A DNA stretch of 64,000 nucleotides from Phyllobates terribilis (Eukaryota): assembly GCF_046119375.1 (NCBI RefSeq), contig NW_027362769.1, forward strand, positions 143,406,001 to 143,470,000. Reading direction: 5' to 3'. Position 1 is the stretch's first letter, and each line of letters opens with the position of its first letter. The position numbers and the translations under genes were made by a program. The notes beneath the pieces are model-generated. The model made no database searches. It saw only the letters and a program-made list of their open reading frames with translations, and was not told the DNA's origin. Shown here piece by piece: positions 5,332-58,190 of the stretch.

Positions 5332-5374
5332 ATATTTGGAAATCAAGATCTCAGGCACTTGAGAAACTTCTTAC

Positions 5375-16097: not shown

Positions 16098-16331
16098 AAT
16101 GGCGTCCGCTCTTCCAAGGCGGGAAATCTTCGGAAATGGCGGGAATCGTCTCCCAGTGGCGGGAAACTCCATGGATGGCGGGAAAAAGCTGCAAATGGCG
16201 GACAACCGGCGGGAAACGACCTGTGATGGGGCCCGATGGCGGGGACCCTCCGGAACCGGCAGGAGACTTCTTTTTAAGGTAACGATGAACTTTTCTTCAG
16301 GCACGCAGTACCCGGTTGTTGCGGGCACGTT

Positions 16332-16349
16332 ATCCTGCCGACTACGCCA
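16332..16349 (-). promoter_or_regulatory. Primer binding site complementary to the tRNA-Ser 3' end
   Basis: TGGCGTAGTCGGCAGGAT, 4 nt after the 5' LTR. It is the complement of ATCCTGCCGACTACGCCA, the 3' 18 nt of vertebrate tRNA-Ser (from memory of that tRNA sequence). Confidence 0.9.
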
Positions 16350-17573: not shown

Positions 17574-20253
17574 CAGAGGAGAAATCCAGGGAGACATCCA
17601 GCAGCTTACACATAGCTCTTCAGAAGCGCGAAGTAAACTGGACCCCGCGATCAGACACAATGTGAAGGGGTAGGCCGTGGAGACGAAAGATGTGATGAAT
17701 GAAGTCCTTAGCCAGCACAGATGCAGACGGGAGACCAGGCAGAGGGATAAAGTGGGCCATTTTAGAAAAGCGGTCAGCGACCACCCAAATGACAGTACAT
17801 CCGGCAGAAACAGGGAGATCAGTAATAAAGTCCTTAGCAATGTGTTGCCACGGGGCAGCAGGTACGGGAAGAGGCCGGAGACGGCCGGCTGGAACATGTC
17901 TGGGAACCTTGTTGCGGGCACATGAAGAACAGGCCGTGACGAAGTCTACAACATCCTTGCACAGGGAAGGCCACCAGTAATGCCGGGTAATGAGCAGGAA
18001 GGTCTTTCTCTGACCAGCATGGCCGGCTAGTTTAGATGAATGACCCCAGTGAAGAACCTTCTTATGATCCGGAACCGCTACAAACGTCTTACCGGGTGGG
18101 AGACGAGACAGGTCCAAGGGAGCCACATTCATCACTTTGGAGGGATCGATGATATGCATAGGCTCCTCCTCTTGATCGGAAGGCAGGAAGGATCGGGACA
18201 AAGCGTCGGCTTTAACGTTCTTGTCCGCAGGGCGGTAATGTAGTTAATGTAGGGTAAAGTTGAAACGGGCGAAGAACAAAGACCACCTGGCCTGACGCGG
18301 ATTGAGTCTTTGGGCATTTTGTAGATATGCCAGGTTTTTGTGGTCAGTGTAGATGACCACCGGGTGCAGAGCCCCCTCTAGCAGGTAACGCCACTCCTCC
18401 AGCGCCAATTTGATGGCTAGCAGTTATCCGTCTCCTATGGAATAGTTGCGCTCAGACGAGGAGAAGAGCTTGGAGAAGAAGCCTCAGGTTACCATTCTCC
18501 CGGACAGAGATTTCTGGGTGAGCACCGCTCCGGCTCCGGAAGAGGAAGCATCAACCTCCAGAAAGAACTGTTTGTTGCAATACAGATGGTGCAGCACCGG
18601 GGCAGAGGAGAAGTCTTGTTTTAAGGAGAGGAAGGCCTCCTCCGCTTCGGACGTCCATTCCTTAGCATTTGCTCCCTTACGGGTGAGCACAGAGATGGGT
18701 GCAGTCCGGGAAGAGAAATGTGGGATGAAGAGACGGTAATAGTTAGCGAAGCTCAGGAATCGCTGAATCGCCTTCAACCCCTCCGGACGGGGCCACTTTA
18801 AGACGGCAGAAACTTTCTCGGGGTCCATCCGTAGACCTGTCTTAGAGATGGCAATGTAGAAAAAATATTTCAGCTCACCTGGGTCAGCCTGCTTTCTCAT
18901 GAGTCACGGTGCTCGGATTGTAAAGATCCCGTCTGGGAGACATTAGGCAGTGATGAAGAGGTAGTTATCCAGCAACTCCTGAAAGTGACTTAAAAAATAG
19001 CCTTTATTTTGAAAAAATTAAAACCATGAGACCATGGTGCAAATAAAAGCATACAGAGGCTTTTATTTGCACCATGGTCTCTTCATCACTGCCTTAGAGA
19101 TAATATAGCCCAGGAACGGAAGAGAGGTCTGCTCGAAGAGGCATTTTTCAAATTTTGCGAATAGGTGATTCTGCCTGAGCCTAAGCAGGACCTGACGAAC
19201 ATCCCTCCGGTGTGTGGGAAGATCCGGAGAGAAGACCAAGATGTCGTCCAGGTACACCACCACGCAAGAATATAAGAGGTCACGGAAGATGTCATTAACT
19301 AATTCTTGGAAGACGGCTGGAGCATTACTGAGGCCGAAGGGCATCACACGGTATTCATAGTGACCGTCCCAGGTATTGAATGCCGTCTTCCACTTGTCTC
19401 CTTGGCGGATCCAGACCAAGTTATACGCCCCACGAAGATCAAGCTTGGTGAAGATCTTCGCGCCTTTAAGGCGGTCGAACAGCTCTGAGATGAGCAGCAG
19501 GGGGTATTTATTTTTGATAGTAATCTGGTTGAGTCCTCTATAATCGATACAGGGGCGTAGTGAACCGTCTTTTTTTTTTTTACGAAGAAGAATCCAGCTT
19601 CAGCCGGGGAGGTAGATTTCTGGATGAATCCCCTAGCCAGATTTTCTTCGATGTACTCCCGACATGGCCCGGGTTTCGGCCAACGACAAAGGGTAGATAT
19701 GCCCACGGGGTGGAGTGGCACAGGGTACCAGGTCAATAGGGCAATCATATGGCCTATGAGGTGGCAGTGTCTCGGCTTCCTTCTTGTCGAAGACAACTGC
19801 ATAGGACCAGTAAGGTGCCGGTAGACCAGGTAAATTAGCCGGAGTAGACGGAGGTCGAGCCGGGCGAACTGGGACCAGGCAGGTCTCATGGCAATCCTGC
19901 CCCCAACGGAGCACCTCACCAGATTGCCAATTCAGAACGGGTTCATGTCTCTGTAGCCAGGGTAGACCTAGCAAAAGGGAGTGAGAGAGGCCGGATAGCA
20001 CATGGAAGGAGATCCTCTCCGAGTGCAGCATTCCCACCTGAAGGGTTACAGGCTCAGTGACGAGCAAGATGGTCACCAGAAGGAGTCTTCCATCCACGGA
20101 AGCGACTGCCAATGGTTCAGCCAGAGGTTTGGTAGGAATCTGATACTTCTCTACAAGGGACTGGGAAATGAGATTCCCAGCTGCTCCGGAATCCAGGTGG
20201 GCGGTTTCAAAGAAGCGGTTCTCTCCACAGGAAATAGAAACGGATAAAGTCAA
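17574..20253 (-). pseudogene. Gypsy Pol, N-terminal part (protease, RT, RNase H, integrase N/core), frameshifted
   Basis: LDSGA protease; [16 protein letters not shown] and [14 protein letters not shown]; FFLEVDASSSGAGAVL RNase H; HSSKLAGHAG...CSSC, DFITDLP and VSDRGVQFTS integrase, spread over several frames. Confidence 0.9.
18850..19093. mobile_element. 244-bp MITE-like insertion in the Gypsy RT
   Basis: TSD TTAGAGAT at 18842-18849 and 19094-19101; imperfect TIRs GGCAATGTAGAA / rc GGCAGTGATGAA; internal perfect 23-bp inverted repeat. Confidence 0.75.
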
Positions 20254-20300
20254 GAACGGAGAGGGTTTACTCTTGCCTAGGACGACCTCTCTGAGCGGTC

Positions 20301-21251
20301 CTAGACACTGGAGTTTCCCGGCTTCACCAGACAGGAACGGATCAGATGCTCCTTACTACCACAGTAGAAACTGCTCCCCTCGGCCCGGCGTGTTTCTTGA
20401 CGAGACTTGACCATCTTAGTCTGGTCGATCTGCATGGGTTCGGGCGAGCGTGCCCGGGGAGTTTCTGGTTGGGAGGCAGGTTTCTGGAAAACAGGAGCAA
20501 GACGAGGAAATCTTCTCTCCTGGGTAGTCTCCTTAGCACGTTCCAGGAAACGGATGTCAATCCGCGTAGCTAGTGACACTAGGTCATCCAGGGTGATAGG
20601 AATGTCCCGGCCGGCTAGCTCGTCCTTAATCCGACCGGAAAGACCCTCCCAGAAGGTGGACACCAGGGCCTCATTGTTCCAGGCAAGCTCAGAAGCGAGG
20701 GTATGGAACTGTATGGCATACTGGCCCACCGTGAGACTCCCTTGGCGGAGACGGAGCAATGAGGAGGCAGTAGAAGTCCTTCGTCCGGGCTCATCGAAGA
20801 CCCTCCGGAAGGCAGTGAGGAAAGCCGGAAGATCGGACACCAGGGGATCCCCTCTCTGCCATAGATGGTTTAGCCATGCCAATGCTTCCCCGGTGAGGTG
20901 AGACATGATGAATGCCACCTTGGCCCGGTCGGAGGGAAACTGATGTGCCAGTAGTTCAAAGTGCAGCGTGCACTGGTTCAGAAAACCCCGACATAAGACG
21001 GGGGCACCTCCAAAATGAGGAGGCGCAGAGAGCCGGGGTCCAGAGCTGGATGCCGTGGTACTGGTAGGCCGCGGCGCCGCCGGAGCGGGTGTCGCTCGGC
21101 TCGAGGCGGGCACAGGTGGGACAGACAGCGTGTCCAGGCGAGAGTTGACAGACCGCAGGTAGGTCAGGATGGTTTCCTGTTGGGATCTCTGATGAGAAAC
21201 CTCCTGGTACAGGTCAGCAAGCGAAGGAGCCTGGGGACCACCGGGTTCCAT
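20301..21251 (-). CDS. Gypsy Gag (retrotransposon gag domain, degenerate CCHC knuckle)
   Basis: CRGFLNQCTLHFEL...AKVAFIMSHLTGEALAW...LRQGSLTVGQYAIQFHTLA; FYCGSKEHLIRSC at the C-terminus. ATG lies just after the 5' LTR. Confidence 0.85.
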   Translation of the reverse strand: MEPGGPQAPSLADLYQEVSHQRSQQETILTYLRSVNSRLDTLSVPPVPASSRATPAPAAPRPTSTTASSSGPRLSAPPHFGGAPVLCRGFLNQCTLHFELLAHQFPSDRAKVAFIMSHLTGEALAWLNHLWQRGDPLVSDLPAFLTAFRRVFDEPGRRTSTASSLLRLRQGSLTVGQYAIQFHTLASELAWNNEALVSTFWEGLSGRIKDELAGRDIPITLDDLVSLATRIDIRFLERAKETTQERRFPRLAPVFQKPASQPETPRARSPEPMQIDQTKMVKSRQETRRAEGSSFYCGSKEHLIRSCLVKPGNSSV

Positions 21252-24200
21252 GGCCCATGCAAACTGTTACAGATACGGGTAGTGCTGCGGTGCAAGGAGG
21301 GACCAGAGGGGCGTAACTAGGTATCGACTCGGACTGACCAAGGTCGCACGGTGGCTCAATCGACTCCATGAACCAGGGAAGGACCGAGCAGAGGGACATT
21401 CTCCGGGTAGGCAGGCAAGCCTGGCCCATAGACAGACTGGCGGGTTAGGACCGTAGGCAGACCGTCGGGCTGGAGAGTGCACTTGGCTGGTGGAGACAGG
21501 TAGTCAGGCTGGCGGACTGGACTGGTAGTCAGGCTGGCGGACTGGACTGGTAGTCAGGCTGGCGGACTGGACTGGTAGTCAGGCTAGCAGCGGGACCTGA
21601 GGGCTGAAGCAGAGTTTAGAACGCAAAGCTACAACCTTGCACGGGCACCTCCATTTTGGAGGAGGTGCCTTTTATATGAGAAGTCCTCTGGCCATTGGCC
21701 GGTGACTCCTTAGGATGGCGCGCGCGGCTCCTTTAAGAGGGAGGGAGCGCGTGCGCGCCCTAAGCACAGTGCCCGGGAAGCTGCGCGCGACAGCAGCTGG
21801 AGAGCCAGAAGACGCCGGGCCAGGCGGTAAGGGGGATGGCGTCTCTGCCTGTCAGGGGGCCGAGACGCCGATGCTACATCAGGGACAAGATCATAGACCT
21901 GCACAAAGCTGGAATAGGGCTACAAAACCATAAATAAGACGCTGGGTGAGAAGGAGACAACTGTTGGTGCAATAGTAAGACAATGGAAGAAATACAAAAT
22001 GACTGTCAATTGACATCGATCTGGGGCACCATGCAAAATCTCACCTCGTGGGGTATCCTTGATCATGAAAAAGGTGAAAGTTCAGCCTAAAACTACACGG
22101 GGGGGAACTTGTTAATGATCTCAAGGCAGCTGGGACCACAGTCAGCAAGAAAACCATTGGTAACACATTATACCTTTAAAGGTTTAAAATCCTGCAGTGC
22201 CTGCAAGGTCCCCCTGCTCAAGAAGGCACATGTACAGGCCCGTCTGAAGTTTGCCAATGAACACCTGGATGATTCTGTGAGTTATTGGGAGAAGGTGCTG
22301 TGGTCAGATGAGACAAAAATTTAGCTCTTTGATATTGACTTAACTCGCCGTGTTTAGAAGAAGTACAACCCTAAGAACATGGTCCCAACCGTCAAGCATG
22401 GTGGGGGAAACATTATACTTTGGCGGTGCTTTTCCAGCAAGACAATAACCCAAAACATACAGCCAAGCCAACAAAGGAATGGCCCAAAAAGAAGCACTGT
22501 AAGGTCATGGAGCAGCCTAGCCAGTCTCCAGACCTTAATCCCATAGAAAACTTATCAAGGGAGCTGAAGCTCCGAGTTGCCAAGCGACAGCCTCAAAATC
22601 GTAATGATTTAGAGATGATCTGCAAAGAGTAGTGGACCAAAATTCCTCCTGACATGTGCGCAAACCTCATCATCAACTACAAATAATGTCTGACTGCTGT
22701 GCTTGCCAACAAGGGTTTTGCCACCAGGTATTAAGTGTTTGCCAGAGGGATCAAGTACTTATTTCTTACTTAAAAATGCAAAAAAAAATATTTAATTTAT
22801 ACAAAGTGATTTTCTTGATTTTTTTTTTTTTGGGATATTCTACCTCTCAATATTAAAATTAACCTACCCTTAAAATTATAGACTGTTCATGTCTTGGTCA
22901 GTGGGCAAACTTTCAAAAACAGCAAGGGATCAAATACTTATTCCCCCCCCCCTCTGTGTGTGTGTATGTATATATTAATATTCCATGAGCTGGAATCGGA
23001 GGTGTATTTACCATACGCTCACGGTGACTTCCCCAATAACCGGCCTAGTAGTGGAAGCAGTTGCGGCCTCGTCCATTACTTGTCAGTCATTTGTGTAATT
23101 GTCCTGACGAATGAAGGCAGCGTCCCTTCATAAATTGGTGTTAGCAATGGGATCTGTGTGACTCACACGGCTGCGTCTCATTGACAACTGGTGGCAGCGG
23201 TGGGATTTATGCGATTTCCCCAGTGTCATCTTTGACAAACTGGTGACAGCAGTGGGATCTGTGTGACACCCTCCCCGATGTCCTCCTAGACATATAGGAT
23301 CTGTAATACTCATTTTCTTATGTGGATCCAAGGAGGCGTGCTTCTTCCAAGTGCACTGACACACCCCCAGTGCACCTTCAGCCTGATTTGCATATGACTT
23401 CTACGCTTGATTTCTCATGACTGGTACATCAGATCTCTACAAAAAAGGTATCTTTTTAATTGGGGGACAGACATACCACTTCTTATATATTTAAAAAAGC
23501 GCTGATAAATTCCCTTCGAATCAGAGCTTTAATTTCTCTTTTGAGTATAGGATATTTCAATTTTAGTAAGTTGTTTTTTGTACACAAGTTATAAAATCAA
23601 TGCTACATAATTGAATTTTACAGTTTGCTGCAATGGGAAGTCTGATTGTGAAGCTTTATGGAGTATCGTTATTGTAGAAATTATTACTGCGATTAGTATA
23701 ATTTGAAGCATACACAAACAATGTGTATACATAGCATAACATAACATAACATACAATGTTTCCTGTCTAGGAAGTACAGAATTGTGCATGCTTGGGGGGA
23801 GAGTGGTCCCACTTTTATAAGACATTCTCATGTCTGTGAGTTAATCATGCAGGTTTGCAATGAATGAGCACCAAGACCTACACACTGTGATACTGGCAGC
23901 TGCTGATCTAAAAGAGATTTGCACCCCCTGTTGGACACTTCTGGAAAAACAAAAATTTGAGTATATACGACTTTATATGTCTATCGCACTGTATTGTCCC
24001 ACTCCTATAGTAAATCACATAACTACACTTTCATCATCTAGCAAATTACAATGTAAATCAGTCATTACAATTGTCTGCAAGGAGCTCTTTAATAACCTTG
24101 TAGTTATTCTTGTGCCTCCCGACAAAAAAAGGAAATCACAGCACATGCTTGGTTTAGTTCCCAATATCCACCACAAGAAAACAAGTAGCACATCATAGTT

Positions 24201-24960: not shown

Positions 24961-26031
24961 CATCACAGTGTCATGCTGAGGGTGGTCATACTGGGCCCTA
25001 GTACAAGTTTTGCTGTTATAACCTATGGCCCTCCAGCTGTTGAAGACCTACAACGCTCAGCACGCCTGGAAGCTGTTTCTGTGAAAGCTAAAAGGTGAGA
25101 ATTTATGAAACGAGTCCTAGTAATATCGGACGCCATCATGGATCTGCTGATAGCATGTGCGTTTCACATAGCTTGTGATTGAATACCTGCATGTAGTGAA
25201 TCTGCTGTGCAATCAGTGACACGGCCGGCTTACTGCGGGAGCTGATGAGGCTGCCTCAGGCCAAATTCTCAAATAAATGCACATAAATAATAGATCTGTT
25301 GTATCCCAAATTACAGGCACATCCTTGGTAACAGCTGCACATTATACCGAGGCCTAAATTATTCAGTACGAAAATTACTACAACTTTTTTTATATATACT
25401 TTTATGTTTTATCATGGAGGGAAATCCTTCACTCTTAAAGAAAAAATAAACTTTCATTTTTATTTTATTTTTACATTTTGACCAGCATGGAAAGTAATGA
25501 AATTTTGCAAATCCCTAGGATTTGTCTTCAACCCTGCAAGTGGCTTCCAAATCCTTGCATTTCCACAATCTATTTGTCTGCCTTCAGCTACATTGATATA
25601 GGAGAGACGTGTCAATCTTGGGCAGTGGGCGGGGAGAAGATGCCGGGGACACTCCTGTCCGACTAGTTTATAGCACGGTCTCAATCCCCGGCGGCTTTTA
25701 AAGTATGTTTTTTATGAATTGCCGCAAAGTTTTCAGAGTTGAACGTACCTGGCAGAGATAATATAGCTAATGTTTAATACATGCTACCTATGGATTTGGC
25801 AGCATTTATCAGCTGACAGGTTCTCTTTAAAATCAATAAGAAAACCAGTCTTCAGTAAGCTCTTCAGCTCCCTCTAGTGTTGACTACAGGCAGATGGAAT
25901 TTTATCATTTACATCTGTGACAAGTGAAGCAGGGAATTTAATGTTCTGTATCTGAGAAGCAGAATCACCAGCCCTGTAAATAAATATTTTTAAATTAATT
26001 TTATCCACTTAACTAAAGACCATGGTATATA

Positions 26032-27677
26032 CAGATAAGTCCATATATATTTGGACAGAGACAACATTTTTTATAATTTTGGTTCTAGACATTACCACAA
26101 TGAATTTTACACAAAACAATTCAGATGCAGTTGAAGTTCAGACTTTCAGCTTTCATTTGAGGGTATCCACATTAAAATTGGATGAAGGGTTTAGGAGTTT
26201 CAGCTCCATAACATGTGCCACCCTGTTTTTAAAGGGACCAAAAGTAATTGGACTATTGACTCCAAGGCTATTTCATGGACAGGTGTGGGCAATCCCTTCG
26301 TTATGTCATTCTCAATTAAGCAGGTAAAAGGCCTGGAGTTATTTGAGGTGTGGGGCTTGCATTTGGAAGGTTTTGCTGTGAAGTAAACATGCGGTCAAAG
26401 GAGCTCTCCATGCAGGTGAAACAAGCCATCCTTAAGCTGCAAAAACAGAAAAAACCCATCCGAGAAATTGCTACAATATTAGGAGTGGCAAAATCTAGTT
26501 TGGTACATCCTGAGAAAGAAAGAAAGCACTGGTGAACTCATCAATGCAAAAAGACCTGGGCACCCACGGAAGACAACAGTGGTGGATGATCGCAGAATAA
26601 TCTCCATGGTGAAGAGAAACCCGTTCACAACAGCCAACCAAGTGAACAACACTCTCCAGGAGGTAGGCGTATCAATATCCAAATCTACCATAAAGAGAAA
26701 ACTGCATGAAAGTAAATACAGAGGGTTCACTGCGCGGTGCAAGCCACTCATAAGCATCAAGAATAAAAACGCTAGACTGGACTTTGCTAAAAAACATCTA
26801 AAAAAGCCAGCACAGTTCTGGAAGAACATTCTTTGGACAGATGAAACCAAGATCAACCTCTACCAGAATGATGGAAAGAGAAAAGTATGGCGAAGGCGTG
26901 GTACAGCTCATGATCCAAAGCATACCACATCATCTGTAAAACACAGCGGAGGCAGTGTGATGGCTTGGGCATGCATGGCTGCCAGTGGCACTGGGTCACT
27001 AGTGTTTATTGATGATGTGACACAGGACAGAAGCAGCCGAATGAATTCTGATGTATTCAGAGCCGTACTGTGTGCTCAGATCCAGCCAAATGCAGCCAAA
27101 CAGATTGGTCGTCGTTTCATACTACAGATGGACAATGACCCAAAACATAAAGCCAAAGCAACCCAGGAGTTTATTAAAGCAAAGAAGTGGAATATTCTTG
27201 AATGGCCAAGTCAGTCACCTGATCTCAACCCAATTGAGCATGCATTTCACTTGTTAAAGACTAAACTTCAGACAGAAAGGCCCAAAAACAAACAGCAACT
27301 GAAAACCACCGCAGTGAAGGCCTGGCAGAGCATCAAAAAGGAGGAAACACAGCGTCTGGTGATGTCCATGAGTTCAAGACTTCAGGCAGTCATTGCCAAC
27401 AAAGGGTTTTCAACCAAGTACTAGAAATGAACATTTTATTTACAATTATTTAATCTGTCCAATTACTTTTGGTCCCTTTAAAAACAGGGTGTCACATGTT
27501 AAGGAGCTGAAACTCCTAAACACTTCATCCAATTTTAATGTGGATACCCTCAAATGAAAGCTGAAAGTCTGAACTTCAACTGCATCTGAATTGTTTTGTT
27601 TAAAGTTCATTGTGGTAATGTCTAGAACCAAAATTAGAAAAATGTTGTCTCTGTCCAAATATATATGGACCTAACTG
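26032..27677 (+). mobile_element. Full-length Tc1-like DD34E transposon, copy A (one 2-bp deletion near the N-terminus)
   Basis: TA-flanked long TIRs (CAG.TA.GTCCATATATATTTGGACAGAGAC). ATG at 26389, frameshift at ~26498, then open to 27424 with WTDETK and MDNDPKH-(34)-E motifs. Confidence 0.93.
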
Positions 27678-28391
27678 TACCATATTTTATGCTTCTTCTA
27701 CTAATACGCCCCCTTTTTTTTACAGCTTTGCTTCTGAAGAAGATGGCAGCGTTGTGCCCTGCATGTCCATTATATATCCATCATGGAGCATGTCAGGGAC
27801 TTCGGAGCGGGCTCAGAAGCATAGCCACAGAGGACAGATGCCAGCTGTACTATATAGCTGACATCTGCTTCTAACAACAGCGGGCAGTGAACCTGGCGAT
27901 TGCTGCTGTTAACCTCCTTAAATGCCGCTGTCAATTGCTAACAGTGGTATGTAAGCGCTGCAATCCAGCCCAGATGTCAGTTTGGGCAGCCATTGGCTTC
28001 CATGCAATGGAAATGCGGGGAACCGATGGGCTGCAATGACAACCAGGGGCCGGCTGCATGCCCCCGTGTTTGTCATGTGATCTACTATGTGATGTCCAGT
28101 CTGTAGCTGGACATCATGGAAGACAGTGATTTTTACTATGTACAGCAATGCTGTGGTATTGCTGTACATAGTAGAGGCGATCAGATGATCTTAGGTTGAA
28201 GTCCCCTAAGGGGACTAACAAAGTAAAAAGTAAAAAAGTTTTTGAAAAAGTTAAAAAAAAATATATAAAAATTCTAATCACATCCCTTTTCCCCGGTTAA
28301 CAATAAACAAAGGTAACACATTTGATTGAATAAACTTCCAGTCCTCAAAGTGTTCAACCCTTTTATATGCCACGATAAATGGTTCCTCTAA

Positions 28392-36470: not shown

Positions 36471-36481
36471 TATATATATTA

Positions 36482-38127
36482 CAGTTAGGTCCATGTATAT
36501 TTGGACAGAGACAACATTTTTCTAATTTTGGTTCTAGACATTACCACAATGAATTTTAAACAAAACAATTCAGATGCAGTTGAAGTTCAGACTTTCAGCT
36601 TTCATTTGAGGGTATCCACATTAAAATTGGATGAAGGGTTTAGGAGTTTCAACTCTTTAACATGTGCCACCCTGTTTTTAAAGGGACCAAAAGTAATTGG
36701 ACAATTGACTCCAAGGCTATTTCATGGACAGGTGTGGGCAATCCCTTCGTTATGTCATTTTCAATTAAGCAGCTAAAGGCCTGGAGTTGATTTGAGGTGT
36801 GGTGCTTGCATTTGGAAGGTTTTGCTGTGAAGTAAACATGCGGTCAAAGGAGCTCTCCATGCAGGTGAAACAAGCCATCCTTAAGCTGCAAAAACAGAAA
36901 AAACCCATCCGAGAAATTGCTACAATATTAGGAGTGGCAAAATCTACAGTTTGGTACATCCTGAGAAAGAAAGAAAGCACTGGTGAACTCATCAATGCAA
37001 AAAGACCTGGGCGCCCACAGAAGACAACAGTGGTGGATGATCACAGAATAATCTCCATGGTGAAGAGAAACCCCTTCACAACAGCCAGCCAAGTGAACAA
37101 CACTCTCCAGGAGGTAGGCGTATCAGTATCCAAATCTACCATAAAGAGAAGACTGCATGAAAGTAAATACAGAGGGTTCACTGCACGGTGCAAGCCACTC
37201 ATAAGCATCAAGAAGAAAAAGGCTAGACTGGACTTTGCTAAAAAACATCTAAAAAAGCTAGCACAGTTCTGGAAGAACATTCTTTGGACAGATGAAACCA
37301 AGATCAACCTCTACCAGAATGATGGAAAGAGAAAAGTATGGTGAAGGTGTGGTACAGCTCATGATCCAAAGCATACCACATCATCTGTAAAACATGGTGG
37401 AGGCAGTGTGATGGCTTGGGCATGCATGGCTGCCAGTGGCACTGGGTCACTAGTGTTTATTGATGATGTGACACAGGACAGAAGCAGCCAAATGATTTCT
37501 GATGTATTCAGAGCCATACTGTGTGCTCAGATCCAGCCAAATGCAGCCAAACTGATTGGTCGTCGTTTCATACTACAGATGGACAATGACCCAAAACATA
37601 AAGCCAAAGCAACCCAGGAGTTTATTAAAGCAAAGAAGTGGAATATTCTTGAATGGCCAAGTCAGTCACCTGATCTCAACCCAATTGAGCAGCATTTCAC
37701 TTGTTAAAGACTAAACTTCAGACAGAAAGGCCCACAAACAAACAGCAACTGAAAACCACCACAGTGAAGGCCTGGCAGAGCATCAAAAAGGAGGAAACAC
37801 AGCGTCTAGTGATGTCCATGAGTTCAAGACTTCAGGCAGTCATTGCCAACAAAGGGTTTTCAACCAAGTACTAGAAATGAACATTTTATTTACAATTATT
37901 TAATCTGTCCAATTACTTTTGGTCCCTTTAAAAACAGGGTGGCACATGTTAAGGAGCTGAAACTCCTAAACCCTTCATTCAATTTTAATGTGGATACCCT
38001 CAAATGAAAGCTGAAAGTCTGAACTTCAACTGCATCTGAATTGTTTTGTCTAAAATTCATTGTGGTAATGTCTAGAACCAAAATTAGAAAAATGTTGGCT
38101 CCGTCAAAATATATATGGACCTAACTG
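36482..38127 (+). mobile_element. Full-length Tc1-like DD34E transposon, copy B
   Basis: Near-identical to 26032-27677. ATG at 36838, N-terminus intact, CGA>TGA stop at 37342-37344 and a 1-bp deletion at ~37692. TA flanks. Confidence 0.93.
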
Positions 38128-38146
38128 TATATATATACATACAATA

Positions 38147-40680
38147 CAGACCAAAAGTTTGGACACACCTTCTCATTTAAAGATTTTTCTGTATTTTCAT
38201 GAGTATGAAAATTGTACATTCACACTGAAGGCATCAAAACTAAGAATTAACACATGTGGAATTATATACTTAACAAAAAAGTGTGAAACAACTGAAAATA
38301 TGTCTTATATTCTAGGTTCTTCAAAGTAGCCACCTTTTGCTTTGATGACTGCTTTGCACACTCTTGGCATTCTCTTGATGTGCTTCAAGAGGTAGTCACC
38401 GGAAATGGTCTTCCAACAATCTTGAAGGAGTTCCCAGAGATGCTTAGCACTTGTTGGCCCTTTGCCTTCACTCTGCGGTCCAGCTCACCCCAAACCATCT
38501 CGATTGGGTTCAGGTCTGTTGACTGTGGAGGCCAGGTCATCTGGCGTAGCACCCTATCATTCTCCTTCTTGGTCAAATAGCCCATACACAGCCTGGAGGT
38601 GTGTTTGGGGATAGGCTAAGGACAGGCAACAAGCAGAAGAGACTTGTTTGGGCAAAAGAACACAAGGAATGGACATTAGACCAGTGGAAATCTGTGCTTT
38701 GGTCTGAGGAGTCCAAATTTGAGATCTTTGGTTCCAACCACTGTGTCTTTGTGCGACGCCGAAAAGGTGAACGGATGGACTCTACATGCCTGATTCCCAC
38801 CGTGAAACATGGAGGAGGAGGTGTGATGGTGTGGGGGTGCTTTGCTGGTGGTGACACTATTGGGGATTTATTCAAAATTGAAGGTATACTAAACCAGAAT
38901 GGCTGCCACAGCATCTATTCCATCCGGTTTGCGTTTAGTTGGACCATCATTTATTTTTCAACAAGACAATGACCCCAAACACACCTTCAGGCTGTGTAAG
39001 GGCTATTTGACCAAGAAGGAGAGTGATGGGGTGCTACGCCAGATGACCTGGCCTCCACAGTCACCAGACCTGATCCCAATCGAGATGGTTTGGGGTGAGC
39101 TGGACCGCAGAGTGAAGGCAAAGGGCCAACAAGTGCTAAGCATCTCTGGGAACTCCTTCAAGATTGTTGGAAGACCATTTCCGGTGAATGTGACGCCCTT
39201 CCTGAGCTTTGGGGTTACACGGAGCCGAGTCAGTGTCGGGGTCGCGGGGAGGGATGTAATCGTGGCTTCGACCCGGTCCGTGCCCAGGGCTGTCACATAA
39301 AAATATTGGGCTTTCAAGGATGAGTGGTATTTCGACTACGCCACCTGCGGATCCTGGTGACGGCCACCAGCGCTGCGTCAGTCCTCTGAGGCCGGTGTTC
39401 TAGCAGCTCAGATGTTACTACTCCCCACAGGCGGAGTAGGCCTCAGGGCAGAGAGAGTAGGAGGACTATGTGGAAGTATGATGGGTGCAGTGCCGGGCAG
39501 GAATAAACAAGCTGAGGCGGTGTATGAAGTCATCCGGGTCTTTACTCACTTTATGTGAACTTTCAGCCGCAAAGCTTCTCTCTGCTACACACGGCGTACT
39601 GCGGCCACTAGGAAGGGGGTTCAGCACTTCCCAGGTAGATCAGGAGCACCTGTCGAGACCCCGCTGGTGTGTGTTCCTCTCCTTGGTAAGTTCTCCCACT
39701 GAGTCTTCTCCTGACTGTGTGTGGTACGAACGTGGTGTAAGGCCGGGTCCCACTGGATAAACGCAGTGTGAGGGATACAGGTGGCGACTCCGCTCCATCT
39801 GTATCCCCCTGGGATCCACTAAGCCTCTTCCAACTGAGACGTGAAGTAACAAAGTCAGATGTCGGGGGCTGGTTACCCCTTTTGCAGCAGGAATCCCTCT
39901 GGCTTGGCCAGAATAGAGAATACAGGTGGCAACTCCGCTCCGTCCGTATCCCCCTGGGATCCTTTTGCCTGTGGAGCTCCACTCCCAGGCCTTCTTAGGA
40001 CAGGACCTTGACCGGGTAGAAACAGTGGTTAAATCTGACCCGCTCCTCGTCTCAAGGCCAGAGTACGAGGATCGCGAACCTTCGGCCAGCTACAGCCTCT
40101 TGCTGGACCCTGACAGAAGACCCTCAATCAAAGACGTTGAACCTAAGATGGCCGTAGATTAAATATGAATCAATAAGTGTTTCCTAAAAGTGTGTCCTCC
40201 ACTCTCACCCACTACATGGTTCCCCCTATCTTTTGGTTCCCCCCATCTCCTCTATCCCGGGCCGGGGCAGCACCCTGGTGCATTCAGGCCCCCTACAGGA
40301 CAGGAGTGGTGTAGTGTTGAGTGGTGAAGTGGGGTCCAGAGTGATGCTCCATCCTTACCCGGAAGAAGAGATACCACACCTCTATCTGAGGTGCAGTACC
40401 CTTGTGGCGACTGAACCCTCAGGGGCGCCACAACTACCTCTTGAAGCTCATCAAGAGAATGCCAAGAGTGTGCAAAGCAGTCATCAAAGCAAAAGGTGGC
40501 TACTTTGAAGAACCTAGAATATGAGACATATTTTCAGTTTATTCACACTTTTTTGTTAAGTATATAATTCCACATGTGTTAATTCATAGTTTTGATGCCT
40601 TCAGTGTGAATGTACAATTTTCATAGTCATGAAAATACAGAAAAATCTTTAAATGAAAAGGTGTCCAAACTTTTGGTCTG
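38147..40680 (+). mobile_element. Rearranged DD38E Tc1-like element with extended inverted arms, interrupted by a solo LTR
   Basis: TA-flanked TIRs at both ends. 38147-38610 is the inverse of 38973-39186 plus 40433-40680. QQDNDPKH-(38)-E spacing. Confidence 0.85.
39191..40432 (-). mobile_element. Solo LTR related to the tRNA-Ser non-autonomous family
   Basis: TGACGCCC...GGGGCGCCACA termini. Shares GACCCGGTCCGTGCCCAGGG, CGACTACGCCA, CTCCATCCTTACCCGG and CCTCAGGG blocks with the LTRs of copies 1 and 2. TSD is degenerate (aatg/acta). Confidence 0.75.
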
Positions 40681-49790: not shown

Positions 49791-52700
49791 CTGAATGAAA
49801 ACCTGAGTTCAGAGTGTGTCCCAATACTTTTGTCCATATAGTATAATTTCATACTGTTTATTATAATACTAGCTCTGTCATTTCATGCACAGTTGAAGTT
49901 TTTCTCATCTTCTGACATGTTTTATGACTTCACACTTATGGGCTAATTTAAGATACCAAAATTGTATCCCCACACATGAAAAGGAAAAAATATTTTTAGT
50001 TATTTTGTTTATTCTATATGTATTTATTTGTATTTTACGCTTAATCTACGTTCACACGTTCAGTATTTGATCAATATTTTACCTCCGTATTGAAGGGAAC
50101 CTGACAGTTGATAGATGGTCATCATGTATCAGACACTAGCAGCATGATTTCAGCCGTTACAGTATGTTTAACTCTGAAATGCTGCAACGTTTCAGAGAAT
50201 AATATACACTGTAAAAGCCACCGGGGACTGAGCTACACAGGAAACTAGTCAGATGGGCGGATCCCCGGTGGTTTCTCCCCGCCCGCTGCCAGTGACTGAC
50301 AGGTCTGTCCCTATACATGCACACAGGGAGAGACCTGTCACTCCAGGGTAGCAGGCGGGGAGAAACCGCCGGGAATCCGCCTGTCCGACTAGTTCCTTTG
50401 CAACTCGGTCCAAAAATTATTTAAATTAATATTTGCTTTTGTGCTGTTTTTTTGCTAATATGTCGAAAACAGTAGATCCTAAAATGCTGAGACCCGATGT
50501 TAACCCCCCACCAAGTGCCTGTTCTACCTATGTGACAAATTTAGGGCAGATTGGTCTGGAGAAAGGGCAGCCGCTGTGTTGCCCCCCATTGTTTTCACTG
50601 CACAGTAGCTTACTTTGGGTGGGACGATGTTGATGACATCACTGCTCTAAAACTACAGGTCCCGTAATGACATTGTGTTGAGTTGGTAGATCACGACCAC
50701 AAACATTAATATAAATTCTCTTTAAATTGAATCTATCACTAGATTTCAAAATAACTGCAATGATATTAAATAGATTCTGGGGTACTTACTTGGAAACTCC
50801 ACATCAGATTGTATAATACTGATATTAAGATGAGTGTTTTATGCTTATTTTAATATTCGGTAGGAAAAGTTACATAATGAATTATTTATAGTGCTTCTCT
50901 TGCAGGAATTTTCAAAATAAGTATATCAGCTTCATCAGGTCCAAGAGATCCATAATAATTTATGTATCTTATATTATAAAATCTAATGACATCTGCTTGA
51001 CTGCTTGAAATATAACTCATTGGACTTCATTTATCTCAACCTTCTAAGAGAAAAACTGTCTTTGTTATCCACAGCAACTAATCAGAGCTCAACTCTCATT
51101 TTTTAACCCTTTACTGTCAAGGCCAGTTTTAATTTTTGGACTTCCGTTTTTTTTTCCCTTCTCCTTTTTCCAAGAGTCATGACTTTTTTTTATTTTTCTA
51201 TTTCATACCCATGTGAGGTCTTGTTTTTCTCTGTCGTTTTGAACTACAGCATTTCCTTTACCAAATAATGTACTGAAAAATGCAAATAAAATTTCAAGTG
51301 AGGTGAAATACTGGAAAATATATAATTCTGTTATTGTTTTTTGAGGTTTTGTTTGTACGGTGTTCACTTTGCAGTAAAATGGACCTGATTACCTAATTCT
51401 CCAGGTCAGTATGATTACGACAATATTAACCCCTTTCTGACCCAAGGTGTACTAATACATACAGTATATGCTGCTGCATCTCTATGCTACTGTATATAAG
51501 CAATCAGGCTGCAAAAAGTGAAAGTCCCATAGTGGGACATAGTGTACAAGTAAAAAAAAGTGCTAGAAAGTGAAAAAAAAAATGTAAATATATATATATA
51601 TATATAAAAAATCCCCCATGAAATAAAAATATACTGTACCCATAAATACATATTATTATGAAAAAAACAAAAAAAACAATAAAAGTACACATTTTGTATC
51701 GCTGCGTCCGGTACGACCTGACCTATAAAAATGTCCCACTAGTTAACCCTTTTAGTGAACACGGTAAAAAATAAAAATAAAAGACGAAGCAAAAAACAAT
51801 GCCTGATCATACCATCAAACAAAAAATGGAATAAAACGCGATCAAAAAGACGAATATAAAAAAAAATGGTACCGCTAAAAACGTCATCTTGTCCCGCAAA
51901 AAACAAGCTGCCATTCAGTGCCATTAGCCCAAAAATAATAGTTATAGCTCTCAGTATAAAGCGATACAAAAAAAAATATTTTTTTCTATAAAATAGTTTT
52001 TATTGTGTAAAAGCGCCAAAAAAAAAAAATGGTACCACTGTAAACATACTGACCCAAAGAATAAAGCTGCCTTATCCATTTTACCACACGCAGAACGGCA
52101 TAAAAAAAAAAAAAAAAATTCCTGAATTGTTGGTTTTTGTTTAGAATGCCTGCCAAAAATCGGAATAGAAAGCAATCAAAAAATGTCACTTGCCCAAAAA
52201 TGGTACCAATAAAAACGTCAACTTGTCCCGCAAAAAACAAGCCATCACATGACTGTCGGCCGAAATATGGAAAAATTATAGCTCTCAAAATATGGCTATG
52301 CAAAAATTAGTCTTTGCAAAAAATATTTTTTTTAGTGTGTGACAGTGACGCGCCCCCTGGGCCATATTCGTTAGTGGGAATATCCGGAGCCGGATCAGAT
52401 GGGGGTTGTAGTCTTCCGAGTGGCTGTGACCCGGTCCGTGCCCAGGGTGTCAAACTGAGTTGTATGTGGCAGTCCTACAGATGTTATAAGTTCTTTATTT
52501 GTCGACTACGCCACCCGTTGTGTTGCGGTCACTGTGGCCGCCGCTGCAGCAGGGTCCGCTGAGGCTGATGGTGTAGGTGCAGCTCTGGTGATATAACCCC
52601 CAACGGGTGGGGTATAGCCTCAGGGGGATCAGGTGCAGAGGATGGGAGTTGTGGTGATGCAGTGTAGACGGCAATCAGAGACAGAGTCGGGTTATGCAGT

Positions 52701-53975
52701 TTAGGATGTTTACTCACTGCTGATGTTCTGGTCACTCCAGCTTCGAGTGACCTCCCGAGCCGTGCTGCGTCCACCAGGTTCTGGATCCAGCCAACTCCCA
52801 AATAAGTCCGGAGCGTGACCCTGAGCTCTCCTTCAGTCCTTTCTCTGGCCGTCCCCACTATTGATCCACCCAGGTCCAGCTCCCTCGGGCCTTCTGTTGG
52901 GACACCCTTGGCCTTGGGTTCCCTGACCCTCCACGTGGTATGCCTTCGTGGTGGATGTGGTGGGTGACCGTGGCAAACGCTGCCCACGGTCTCCGGTCTC
53001 TGGCTGGGGAGTGTTTTTACCCCCACCAGCTTGGGTTCCGGTACCCTGTGCCGACTCTTCACCCGGGGATTTAGTTTGGGGTCTTAGAGTCCTTTTCTTC
53101 TGTGCCTCTGGGTCTCTCTCTCTCTCCTCTCTCACTCTGGGTCTCTCTTCTCCTCTGCTCCTGACTTTCTCTCTGCAACTGACCCTGTTCTTAGTTGGTG
53201 CCCACCTTATATACACCCTCTATGTGTGAGCTCAGGTGACCAGCACCCAATGAGCTCCTAACTTTACCCAGGCTGCTCCCCCTATCTGCCCCTACACTAC
53301 TTGGGATGTACCACCCCCCTCCCACTCCAGCCAGGAACAGACTCGGTCGTACCTGCACATTTCTAAGTGGGAGTACCGTCGGTCTGCTCCTCGGAAATGG
53401 GATGTGTGTAGTGCATGCAGCCTACCGAGCTCAGTTCCACACTCCATCCTTACCCGGGAGTGGAATATCACACCTCTGGGTTGAGGTGCAATACCCCTGT
53501 AGCAGCCGAATCCTCAGGGTGCTACATTCCCCCCTGGTAAATCACAGCACGTCCTCGGGCTGTAAGACATAACACCAAAAACATACAAATTTTTCATAAA
53601 CATATAAAACATATAAAACAACATATATATATATATCAATATAAAACATTCTCGTCGCCTCTGGCTCCTCCTCCGGTCACTGTGCAACGTGTGACCGGGT
53701 AAAGTGCGACAGTCTCTCTGGAAAACTGGTTTTCCTATAAAACCGGTAGGGGGCGCTTTAGGAAGCGCAACTATATACAGGGGAAGTTGGCCGCTCTCAG
53801 TCCTCGGCCAGGTAAAGGGAAGGGAATGGCTGCTCACAGTCCTCAGCCTGGTATGAATACGGAATAACGGGTAAACAGTTCACTCATGCTGGTCCCAACG
53901 GGGACTATATATATGTAGCAACAGTTTCTTTGGTACCCGGTCGGGTAACTATTTACATCTACTGCTCTGCCGCAC

Positions 53976-55803
53976 TCAACGGCGTCTTCCTCCTGCTCTT
54001 TGCTTGTAGCTGGTTGTAACTTCAGACCCGTCCGGGTCCTCTTGCTCCTCCTCCTCGCACCGCAACTCCTCCTCCGTCAGGCGATGCACATGGAGGGCGT
54101 AAGGTCCTTTGGCACACTTGTGCCGGGTAAAGGTGACCTCGTCCCCGATATAAAGGTCACGACCTCTGTGCCCCTCCGGCAGATGGGACTCCACATCTCT
54201 GCGCGTGACAAAGACGCCGCCGGGGGTGTTGTTGTCTCTGATGAAGCCCCACCCATGCTGCAGGTTAAACTTTATTACAGTCCCGGTGGTACGGGGACTG
54301 TGCGCTGCACGGGGGTCCCTCCTGGTTCGGCTCTTCTGCTCGGCGCTCCATACTTGGGCCTGTTGCTCCCGGACCCGCCTCTCTCTCCGCTCCCTCGCAA
54401 ACTCTTCGAGCTGCTGTCGGCAACACTCAGCACGCTCCGCTGCAGCTGCCCTGGTTTCCTGAGTGAACCCCATTAGGTCTTCTCCGGTGGGGTCCCACTC
54501 AAATTGGGCTTCTTCCAGAGGAGGCGAGACCCGTGCCACGGGCTTCGGAGCCGGAATCAGGGGCTCACACAAGGGCCCTAGTCTCTGCTGCCGTTCCAGC
54601 TCATGGAATTCTTCGGGCCAGATGAAGGGCCGCCCGTCCGGCCATGTGAGCTGGCTGAACAAGTCCTCCCCCAGGTGTGGCACCCTTGGTTTTACGGGCG
54701 CGGGCGCGGTGGTGGTGGCGCCCGGATTGCCCAGGCCTTGCGGCCAGGCCTGGGGCACCTGGAAGGTGAAGGGCACCGTTAATACGGCGGCGCCCTGGGC
54801 TACCTGGCCTTGCGACCAGGCCGGAGGCTCCGCGGAGGTAGGGGGCGCTGTTGGTGATGCGGCGCCCGGGGGTACTAGGCCTTGCGACCAGGCTGGTGGT
54901 ATTTCCTGCTTTGTCACGCTCCGGGTCGAGGCGCGTGACGTCACAGGGGTCGCTGCGGCGGCTTCCGGTCGGGGCCTAGTCCATAGCGGTGACATGGCGG
55001 CTACGGGCACAGCAGGGGGACTTTCGGGCTCTGCGACGGGGAGCTGGGGCAGGTGGGCGGTTTCCCGGCTTGGGGTATAGGCGTCCCCTTTACCTGCCTC
55101 CTTGCGTCCGGCTCCCTTCTCGGCGCCGTCTCCGGCCTTTGGTCCTCCCGCGCCATCCTCAGAGGCGGTCTGTTTCCTCTTCCAGGGTAGCGTGCTCCGT
55201 TGACTGGTCTCAGCTTGCTGGGCCATCTCCCGGCTCCATTCCGCCAATATCTCGCGCTGTACCCGGGCCATCCTCCGTGCGAGGCCCTCTAGGGCAGTCT
55301 GTGCACACTCCCGGTCTCGGGGGAGCTGTGCAAGGACCTCCACTAGGCCTAGTGGGGTCGTGGTGTCTAGCAGGCTCCTGACCAACGGGTCAGCTGCTCT
55401 GCTCTTCTTCCAGCAGGCTCCTGGCCAGCGGGCCGGTGCTGCTCCGCTCTCCTTCCTCGGTCTCTAGCAGACTCCTGGCCAGCGGGCCGGTGCTGTTCTG
55501 CTTTCTCTCCATCTCCGGGTAAGCTCCTCCGCTACTCCTCTCCAGGCTTCTTGCCTCCGGGTGCGCTCGCTCCAGACTGCTCCAGGCGGCACCCATCTTC
55601 GTTCTTTTCTTTCGTCTCCTCCCACTTCGAGGGCGGTCCCGGGGCAACTCGGTGACTGTCAGCTCCAGGGGTAGTTCTTTCACGCTGACAGACACCTCCA
55701 GCATCACAGTCTCTGTTGGTGGGGGCGGTTTCCACTTTTGGCGCCATTTTCTGTCCTGGCCCACGATGGGAGGCGGCCTCTTGCCCTCCTTTGGCACGCC
55801 CAT
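53976..55803 (-). pseudogene. ~609-codon ORF of LTR copy 2 with one frameshift (~55390) and a C-terminal cold-shock domain
   Basis: ORFs 55390-56082 and 53976-55385 join into one protein collinear with the copy 1 ORF. CSD at ~54078-54290: TTGTVIKFNLQHGWGFIRDNNTPGGVFVTRRDV...LYIGDEVTFTRHKCAKGPYALHV. Confidence 0.8.
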
Positions 55804-56040
55804 AATGGCGTCCGCTGCTCTTCCAAGGCGGGAAATCTTCGGATTTGGCGGGAAGAGTCGCCCAGTGGCGGGAAACTCTGCAGATGGCGGGAACAAGCTG
55901 GAAATGGCGGACAATCGGCGGGAAACGACCTGTGATGGGGTCCGATGGCGTGGACCCTCCGGAACCGGCGGGAGACTTCTTTCTGAGGTAAACTTGCACT
56001 TTTCTTCAGGCACGCAGTACCCGGGTGTTGCGGGCACGTA

Positions 56041-56058
56041 ATCCTGCCGACTACGCCA
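56041..56058 (-). promoter_or_regulatory. tRNA-Ser primer binding site
   Basis: Same 18-nt TGGCGTAGTCGGCAGGAT, 4 nt from the 5' LTR. Confidence 0.9.
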
Positions 56059-57361
56059 AAGTTGACGCGCCCCCTGGGCCATATTCGTTAGTGGGAATAT
56101 CCGGAGCCGGATCAGATGGGGGTTGTAGTCTTCCGAGTGGCTGTGACCCGGTCCGTGCCCAGGGTGTCAAACTGAGTTGTATGTGGCAGTCCTACAGATG
56201 TTATAAGTTCTTTATTTGTCGACTACGCCACCCGTTGTGTTGCGGTCACTGTGGCCGCCGCTGCAGCAGGGTCCGCTGAGGCTGATGGTATAGGTGCAGC
56301 TCTGGTGATATAACCCCCAACGGGTGGGGTATAGCCTCAGGGGGATCAGGTGCAGAGGATGGGAGTTGTGGTGATGCAGTGTAGACGGCAATCAGAGACA
56401 GAGTCGGGTTATGCAGTTTAGGATGTTTACTCACTGCTGATGTTCTGGTCACTCCAGCTTCGAGTGACCTCCCGAGCCGTGCTGCGTCCACCAGGTTCTG
56501 GATCCAGCCAACTCCCAAATAAGTCCGGAGCGTGACCCTGAGCTCTCCTTCAGTCGTTTCTCTGGCCGTCCCCACTATTGATCCACCCAGGTCCAGCTCC
56601 CTCGGGCCTTCTGTTGGGACACCCTTGGCCTTGGGTTCCCTGACCCTCCACGTGGTATGCCTTCGTGGTGGATGTGGTGGGTGACCGTGGCAAACGCTGC
56701 CCACGGTCTCCGGTCTCTGGCTGGGGAGTGTTTTTACCCCCACCAGCTTGGGTTCCGGTACCCTGTGCCGACTCTTCACCCGGGGATTTAGTTTGGGGTC
56801 TTAGAGTCCTTTTCTTCTGTGCCTCTGGGTCTCTCTCTCTCTCCTCTCTCACTCTGGGTCTCTCTTCTCCTCTGCTCCTGACTTTCTCTCTGCAACTGAC
56901 CCTGTTCTTAGTTGGTGCCCACCTTATATACACCCTCTATGTGTGAGCTCAGGTGACCAGCACCCAATGAGCTCCTAACTTTACCCAGGCTGCTCCCCCT
57001 ATCTGCCCCTACACTACTTGGGATGTACCACCCCCCTCCCACTCCAGCCAGGAACAGACTCGGTCGTACCTGCACATTTCTAAGTGGGAGTACCGTCGGT
57101 CTGCTCCTCGGAAATGGGATGTGTGTAGTGCATGCAGCCTACCGAGCTCAGTTCCACACTCCATCCTTACCCGGGAGTGGAATATCACACCTCTGGGTTG
57201 AGGTGCAATACCCCTGTAGCAGCCGAATCCTCAGGGTGCTACAACAGCTGTCAATCATAAAAACCCGATATGAATCTGGCATCACTCTAATCACACCGAA
57301 CCAAAGAATAAAGTCGTCTAATCACTTATACCGCATGAGGAAAGGAGTAAAAAATAAACTC

Positions 57362-58190
57362 TAGGGTTAGGGTTTTGTAGGGTTAGGGTTTTGCTAGGGT
57401 TAGGGTTTTGCTAGGGTGAGTGTTTTGCTAGGGTTAGGGTCATGCTAGGGTTATGGTCGGGCTAGGGTTAGGGTCGGGCTAGGGTTAGGGTCGTGCTAGG
57501 GTTAGGGTTGTGCTAGGGTTAGGGTTGTGCTAGCGTTAGGGTTGGGATAGGGTTAGGGTTGGGCTAGGCTTAGGGTTGTGCTAGGGTTAGGGTTGTGCTA
57601 GGGTTAGGGTTATGCTAGGGTTAGGGTTGTGCTAGGGTTAGGGTTGTGCTAGAGATAGGGTTGGGCTAGGGTTGGGCTAGAGTTAGGGTTAGGGTTGGGC
57701 TAGGGTTAGGGTTGGGCTAGGGTTAGGGTTGGGCTAGGGTTAGGGTTGTGCTAGGGTTAGGGATGTGCTAGAGTTAGGGTTGGGCTAGGGTTAGGGTTGG
57801 GCTAGGGTTAGGGTTGTGCTAGAGTTAGGGTCAGGGTTGTGCTAGGGTTAGGGTTGTGCTAGGGTTAGGGTTGTGCTAGAGTTAGGGTTGGGCTAGGATT
57901 AGGGTTGTGCTAGGGTTAGGGTTGGGCTAGAGTTAGGGTTAGGGTTGGGCTAGGGTTAGGGTTGGGCTAGGGTTAGGGTTAGGGTTGGGCTAGGGTTAGG
58001 GTTAAGGTTGGGCTAGGGTTAGGGCTAAGGTTGTGCTAGGGTTAGGGTTAAGGTTGTGCTAGGGTTAGGGTTAAGGTTGTGCTAGGGTTAGGGTTAAGGT
58101 TGTGCTAGGGTTAGGGTTAAGGTTGTGCTAGGGTTAGGGTTGGGTTAGGGTTGGGGTTGGGCTAGGGTTAGGGTTGTGCAAGGGTTGGGA
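57362..58190 (+). repeat. Interstitial telomere-like array: TTAGGG alternating with TTG(T/G)GCTAGGG
   Basis: Dominant 17-bp composite ttagggttgtgctaggg, with 23-bp variants carrying an extra TTAGGG or TTAAGG. Confidence 0.95.

Follow-up and report, generated by a model that had tools for sequence, protein, structure and literature searches.

We describe a retrotransposon with long terminal repeats (LTRs) at 52346-57243, on the minus strand of a 64,000-nucleotide stretch of the Phyllobates terribilis genome (contig NW_027362769.1, positions 143,406,001 to 143,470,000; hereafter the window). By its LTRs, target-site duplication (TSD), primer-binding site (PBS) and polypurine tract (PPT), its lack of pol and its many young copies, it is a non-autonomous LTR retrotransposon. 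Such elements usually retain no gene, or gag alone. The element in the window belongs to a real, large and selected family, and what appears to be new about it among non-autonomous LTR retrotransposons is that it carries its own cold-shock domain (CSD) gene without gag or pol. Its features are listed below from the 5' to the 3' end of the element; dN/dS, the ratio of nonsynonymous to synonymous substitution rates, is pairwise and by the NG86 method throughout.

57244-57247, plus: right copy of the TSD, ACAG
56063-57243, minus: 5' LTR, 1181 nt, TG...CA, 2 differences from the 3' LTR
56923-56930, minus: TATA-like box in the 5' LTR, putative promoter
56220-56232, also 52503-52515, minus: second tRNA-Ser-complementary motif, 13 nt, inside the LTR
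56041-56058, minus: PBS for tRNA-Ser(AGA/TGA), 18 nt, 4 nt past the 5' LTR
55390-56082, minus: 5' part of the family open reading frame (ORF); its ATG lies 20 nt before the LTR end; spans the PBS and leader and ends at a frameshift
53976-55463, minus: 3' segment of this ORF, with 495 codons from stop to stop
54320-54464, minus: long charged helix before the CSD, dN/dS ~0.06-0.16
54084-54287, minus: CSD (PF00313), found by Pfam, phmmer, AlphaFold and Foldseek, dN/dS 0.10-0.14
53979-54075, minus: acidic tail with a basic tip at its end, dN/dS ~0.5
53527-53537, minus: PPT, abutting the 3' LTR and near-identical in the autonomous partner described below
52346-53526, minus: 3' LTR, 1181 nt, TG...CA
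52342-52345, plus: left copy of the TSD, ACAG

An earlier sequence-only reading had described twin 1181-nt LTRs, a tRNA-Ser PBS, a PPT and an ACAG TSD around an interior free of gag and pol motifs. All of these signals hold, with exactly two differences between the LTRs, and a Pfam scan of eight frames of the element gives no match to gag, protease (PR), reverse transcriptase (RT), RNase H (RH) or integrase (IN). The PBS is the complement of the 3' 15 nt plus CCA of the host's tRNA-Ser AGA/TGA genes (ARAGORN, 6/6 loci). Joints that skip ~52323-57244, in contigs from public runs, are consistent with the flanking repeat in uninterrupted copies. [quoted passage not shown]

The cold-shock domain gene and its conservation

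The CSD had originally been recognized by eye, and independent methods agree on it. PF00313 matches at E=4.3e-7 (30.2 bits, curated cut-off 27) and is the sole Pfam family above its cut-off in the eight frames; a second PF00313 score, 33.7 bits, likewise exceeds 27. The best solved structures by phmmer are YBX1 CSDs (E=2e-4), and AlphaFold predicts a five-strand barrel from a 19-row alignment (pLDDT 92.8), for which the top Foldseek matches are CspA (E 8e-7), other Csps, YBX2 and YBX1 at ~30-35% identity. Matches in the ESM Atlas are to generic CSD clusters only, under 0.9. The RNP1-like GWGFI motif and VFV are kept. The sequence-only reading had proposed HMMER and Foldseek searches and had named the lack of a match as telling against its call; both searches instead return significant PF00313 and CSD-fold matches.

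The genome is 10.57 Gb in size, and the family is abundant in it. Exact LTR-PBS junctions number 34,822, and exact PPT-LTR junctions of this element's LTR type 21,423, while an 11-codon CSD motif has 14,087 exact matches, so that there are at least 14,087 CSD-bearing copies. The C-terminal 141 residues yield 39,694 candidates, the best 150 of which were scored and are all 96-100% identical and free of stops. As a content-blind sample, we took the LTR-PBS junctions that head the list, 60 in all, each located at the start of contig C1: 32 are CSD-bearing, 18 have gag and a pol of >1000 aa, 3 have partial gag, 4 are family copies without a CSD and 3 are other. LTR divergence in CSD-type copies is 0-1.0%, in agreement with the earlier view of a recently mobile element. 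In older subfamilies, LTR pairs are 79-98% identical, with 50-77% protein identity over the helix and CSD (5/119 matches with stops dropped, duplicates merged to 82).

Several individual loci stand apart. Three (L142-L144, e.g. G000:C4:629337700-629346200) belong to a lineage that is older and differs in its LTR and PBS, with 73 exact junctions; the internal region is ~1.4 kb in L143, and the lineage has a short frame with its first Met at the CSD itself and a CSD dN/dS of 0.09-0.18. Others (L049, L050 and, by match spacing, L041) are head-to-tail arrays in which at least two internal regions share LTRs. In three database gene models, pieces of the family ORF are fused to R3H (P0002), PF04827/PF13359 (P0160) and PF02854 (P0162); these are probably annotation artefacts, and annotation pipelines already convert family copies into false or fused host genes.

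The single long frame of the sequence-only reading does not exist in the window copy, which is frameshifted near 55,393 so that the ORF is split in two, and it does exist in most other copies. In 25/32 CSD copies, nothing interrupts the frame between a point inside the 5' LTR and the stop after the CSD, and the ORF is 601-723 codons long in the 24 same-frame intact copies. Its 3' part encodes, in order, a helical hairpin, an Ala/Pro-rich disordered stretch, the charged helix, the CSD and the acidic-basic tail; a charged helix ahead of the CSD and an acidic tail behind it had both been anticipated, and lie at 54320-54464 and 53979-54075. A single-sequence model of the full-length protein has the helical hairpin and one long helix and no capsid bundle, at a low confidence (mean pLDDT 44), and the ESM Atlas returns nothing for residues 205-310.

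In the window copy, the single LTR ATG downstream of the TATA-like box is the ATG at 56082. From the TATA box to the LTR end, sense ATGs are scarce in 24 CSD copies (36 observed vs 189 expected) and in 8 partner copies (2 vs 49), whereas antisense ATGs show no deficit in the same 24 CSD copies (270 vs 193 expected); the copies are related, and hence the counts are not independent trials. This scarcity fits with scanning translation across a long leader. A candidate poly(A) signal in the window LTR was rejected because only 3/32 CSD copies carry one, and folding of the U5-PBS RNA gave no significant structure (z -1.36).

Purifying selection on the CSD and helix between element lineages is shown by several comparisons. 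The 70-codon CSD of the window copy has a dN/dS of 0.10-0.14 against 7 subfamily members (dS 0.4-1.15), and the median is 0.15 over the 83 measurable pairs of 120, with none >1; in several more distant pairs, synonymous sites are saturated. Values within older subfamilies are 0.09-0.24. Differences cluster at third codon positions, and the other two sense frames of the region give 0.96-3.2, while the range is 0.15-0.28, in line with expectation, for the antisense frame whose third positions coincide with those of the CSD frame. In the set of 24 intact ORFs, dN/dS varies with position: codons 1-120, whose sequence also serves as U5, PBS and leader, give 0.5-1.3, helical segment 245-284 gives 0.21, the rest of the middle gives 0.3-0.6 and residues 517-676 give 0.06-0.16. 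Indels in multiples of three account for 79/154 in the ORF vs 74/291 in the 3' untranslated region and 85/364 in the LTR (alignment noise included). The near-neutral dN/dS across copies that the sequence-only reading had named as counting against it is therefore not what the copies display, and the low CSD values across subfamilies imply that the domain is not a passenger.

The probable autonomous partner, CSD-less derivatives and relatives

The sequence-only reading had portrayed the element as a parasite of an autonomous Gypsy, and a candidate partner can now be identified through its PBS, LTR ends, PPT and TSD preference. This Ty3/gypsy element has a PNMA-like gag with a CCHC knuckle, followed by PR-RT-RH-IN, and no CSD. 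Of the canonical Metaviridae hallmarks (ICTV profile, PMC7879559), a gag with capsid and nucleocapsid and a pol with PR, RT, RH and IN, the CSD element has neither, and the partner alone has both. The two have the PBS, the PPT and similar LTR termini in common, and a stretch of ~370 nt at the LTR end and PBS is 73-78% identical between them. Four-bp TSDs occur in 45/48 resolved copies, both classes included (14/62 unresolved), and a G directly precedes the TSD in 20/28 and 10/15 copies of the two classes. The partner type has 26,889 exact PPT-LTR junctions and is equally young, with an LTR divergence of 0-1.8% vs 0-1.0% in the CSD type. These shared cis signals suggest that CSD-family RNA is likely mobilized in trans by the partner.

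Derivation of the ORF from the partner's own genes was also considered. The best BLAST match, to the pol tail, has E=0.023, and there is no significant BLAST match to gag. Alignment of the element ORF against partner gag and pol by hhalign gives probabilities under 1%, and a shuffle test gives 25/500 for the pol tail and 419/500 for gag; both origins were rejected as unproven.

In 30/32 CSD copies and 15/21 partner-type copies, the second tRNA-Ser motif precedes the LTR end by 160-175 nt; it may represent a bipartite or duplicated primer site. At one of the divergent loci above, L144, the PBS and this motif have both switched to another sequence, which we take to be that of tRNA-Ser(CGA).

The window also holds a second copy of the family:

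13275-17570, minus: second family copy, 82% identical, helix and CSD deleted in frame

Its LTRs are 0.33% apart, it has a TSD, and the deletion runs between two Pro-Asp-Gly repeats: CSD-less RNA gets mobilized. This copy is nested in a degenerate Ty3/gypsy element of another lineage (window ~12000-21880), which retains Retrotrans_gag, protease and integrase pieces with ~33-38% identity to the partner pol.

Relatives of the CSD protein were sought with a 19-copy profile against 1.84 billion proteins and with a 14-row profile. Among the matches listed, the species named for close relatives are all poison frogs (Phyllobates terribilis, Ranitomeya variabilis, R. imitator, Anomaloglossus baeobatrachus); for the 19-copy profile, these are the best 150 of 5850 matches, crowded with multi-CSD proteins, and weaker relatives in other frogs are possible. 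The poison-frog relatives score 83-132 bits per domain vs 51 for the next protein, four of them having been rows of the 14-row profile, and several align past the CSD boundaries. From sequence, we infer that the Ranitomeya and Anomaloglossus relatives reside in LTR elements. None of the protein matches joins a CSD to RT or integrase in a longer protein, a weak negative as the 14-row search scored 8000 candidates.

In a CSD tree (51 rows, 75 columns), 13/14 rows from the element and from frogs group in a single long-branch clade (support 98/96) that is not nested among YBX-like rows; the divergent L141 row falls outside it. The backbone is poorly supported, and vertebrate YBX is represented by one YBX-like match from this genome. 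The phylogeny that had been proposed earlier thus separates the element clade without singling out a donor, YBX-type or other, solved YBX and bacterial Csp domains being alike ~30-35% identical. The L141 row is one of three related segments ~17-19 kb apart (L141, L151, L152; G000:C4:791.48-791.52 Mb) with a different, divergent CSD that keeps a VHY motif; one is open and two are broken, no LTRs were recognized, and in the tree these segments lie outside the element clade. Other CSD segments in the genome, named by eye, are intronless CSDE1-like segments (C1), CSDE1-like exons (C2) and a diverged YBX-like CSD (C11), together L111-L118 and L131.

Elsewhere in the window, we observe the following:

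~57360-58100, right of the element: degenerate array of 17-nt period, rich in TTAGGG-like units
~39190-40430, minus: apparent solo LTR of a related lineage, with the same second tRNA motif
26026-27679 and 36475-38129: Tc1-like transposon copies, 97% identical, the first with a long transposase frame
5374-7203, minus: frame of 610 codons that has no Pfam match and whose start resembles a membrane anchor, possibly the large first exon of some host gene

Possible roles of the CSD protein

We propose that the family is a non-autonomous Ty3/gypsy satellite of poison frogs. As the shared signals suggest, the co-resident autonomous element would most likely provide the Gag and Pol that package its RNA, reverse-transcribe it and integrate the product. 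The single ORF would be translated from the long, AUG-poor leader to give a mostly disordered product ending in the charged helix, CSD and acidic tail, a YBX-like layout. This protein would bind the RNA that encoded it, protect or mask it and help it compete for helper particles. The main beneficiary would be the RNA from which the protein was translated, because selection would do little to preserve a purely trans product of thousands of copies; the benefit would be partial or shared, since CSD-less derivatives can spread for a while. We consider it an even call whether the ORF product does act in this way, binding RNA with a preference for cis, shielding the RNA it comes from and aiding the entry of that RNA into helper particles. 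The protective role is drawn by analogy with host YB-1, which is reported to stabilize the genomic RNA of HIV and of MLV and to aid the production of particles (PMC6040738).

Several observations weigh against this reading. The U3 and internal regions differ between the CSD family and the partner. In the phmmer alignment, the element's CSD has Lys at the YBX1 Trp position and Thr/Asn at the RNP2 His position. The canonical Trp and RNP2 His stack on or contact bases, and because both are replaced, nucleic-acid binding may be weak or non-canonical. The true start codon is uncertain, because the U5 ATG is present in only 15/24 intact copies (Met at codons 127, 163 and 287 is present in 24/24) and the first 120 codons evolve at the near-neutral dN/dS given above. 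Finally, the CSD-deletion junction of the 13275-17570 copy occurs 580 times in the genome at <=2 mismatches, another subfamily has a similar CSD-less junction, and junctions of other kinds are present in three copies of the sample; since CSD-less copies spread, the CSD is not required in cis in each round.

The spread of CSD-less copies agrees with action in trans, and the CSD and partner classes are alike in copy number and age. Both observations favor a possible, if doubtful, alternative in which the protein is an anti-silencing or translation-control factor that binds small-RNA precursors or repressive ribonucleoprotein components in the germ line, such that the family, its deletion derivatives and the partner would all benefit as a two-part mutualistic system. 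However, a purely trans-acting product from thousands of copies should drift near-neutrally within a genome, and a dN/dS near 0.1 speaks for a cis benefit. Also in favor of the trans-acting factor, Gypsy RNA is reported to be highly expressed in the ova of another poison frog (PMC6278860). Less probable is an in-particle chaperone for tRNA-Ser annealing at two sites, strand transfer or dimerization, working alongside the partner nucleocapsid. The CSD fold, the conservation of the second tRNA motif, its change together with the PBS at one divergent locus and the use of a bipartite PBS by Ty3 (PMC4974528) are all consistent with this role, but CSD-less copies replicate, and the partner, which has a zinc knuckle and shares the second motif, lacks a CSD, so that priming works without one.

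The position and size of the ORF raise the prospect of a highly diverged Gag in which the CSD has replaced the nucleocapsid, with the family building its own particles, as the TR-GAG elements of plants probably do: there is a single 600-720-codon ORF in the gag position with a C-terminal RNA-binding module. We hold this to be very unlikely, as Pfam detects no gag or capsid, BLAST and hhalign find no significant similarity to partner gag, the structural model lacks a capsid bundle (at its mean pLDDT of 44, a very remote capsid is possible), and the frame of the L142-L144 lineage has its first Met at the CSD. We give almost no credence to a neutrally carried, transduced host fragment whose open frame merely shields the RNA from nonsense-mediated decay. 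The near-neutral N-terminal 120 codons and the recurring deletion that stays in frame speak for it, and the N-terminal third may still be accounted for in this way. Its application to the CSD and helix is contradicted by a dN/dS of ~0.1 with synonymous saturation between subfamilies, by the excess of third-position differences and by the ~30-35% identity to YBX CSDs.

A broader proposal, which we regard as rather unlikely, makes the family more than a parasite: it would be the accessory component of a retrotransposon in two parts, with Gag-Pol supplied by one element and, by the other, a cold-shock RNA-binding factor that guards retrotransposon RNA or blocks germ-line silencing. If this were true, the pair would have helped to inflate poison-frog genomes over tens of millions of years, and cheaters that lack the CSD would have emerged again and again to form a third tier. 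The CSD family alone accounts for ~70-100 Mb (14,087-21,423 copies x ~4.9 kb) and the partner for more, and the pair therefore bears on the large genome size of poison frogs.

Comparison with known systems

Helper, CSD satellite and CSD-less derivatives make up a natural three-tier system, in which a host-type, probably RNA-binding gene is strongly selected while the enzymes probably come from another element. This raises the question of what a parasite must make itself in order to win helper particles or evade silencing. Full-text literature searches, which did not extend to Repbase, Dfam and most subscription journals, gave no family that lacks gag and pol and is centred on a selected CSD gene, and the main texts of the poison-frog and anuran genome papers covered make no mention of a cold-shock domain; the papers below are likewise cited for the parts covered.

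A parallel in overall form is TR-GAG of plants (PMC4350172), which is likewise short, active and non-autonomous and retains one ORF. That ORF is Gag, whereas here Gag homology was not detected and the selected part is the CSD. Xenopus 1A11 and Xretpos (PMC4585706) are likewise frog LTR elements, with early-embryo expression and, in 1A11, one ORF; the 1A11 product is a 71-kDa Gag-like protein with 20-30 ORF-related copies, and the term "cold shock" is absent from that paper. PNMA-type vertebrate Metaviridae (PMC11011659) resemble the partner in their PNMA-like capsid, CCHC knuckle and PR-RT-RH-IN, none of which the CSD element has, and their extra RNA-binding domain is RRM-like and lies within Gag, rather than being a CSD on a separate element. 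LTR elements of bdelloid rotifers and plants with additional ORFs (PMC5408684, PMC7264820) likewise keep non-retroviral accessory genes, mostly beside gag and pol, and in the bdelloid study these ORFs show no significant departure from neutrality within the genome.

At the protein level, YBX1, YBX2 and CspA share the five-strand CSD fold (Foldseek E 8e-7 to 7e-6), the RNP1-like GWGFI and the long loop, and YBX1 and YBX2 are also alike in having an Ala/Pro-rich region before the CSD and a charged tail after it. The element differs from them in its ~30-35% identity, its replaced Trp and RNP2 His and its separate long-branch clade.

The sequence-only reading knew of no described vertebrate LTR family like this one. 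That stands for a selected CSD gene without gag or pol and does not stand for CSD carriage as such: in the nearest precedent, 46 bird endogenous retroviruses (ERVs) encode a pfam00313 CSD, for which the authors suggest convergent, possibly adaptive capture (PMC12287698). These are likewise vertebrate LTR retroelements with pfam00313; they were classified by RT and reflect multiple captures, two table rows have E ~1e-24 and are far nearer to the Pfam model, and the parts of the paper covered contain no selection test. Unlike in the bird CSD-ERVs, the CSD gene described here is the sole gene of its element, far diverged, measurably selected and present in >14,000 copies.

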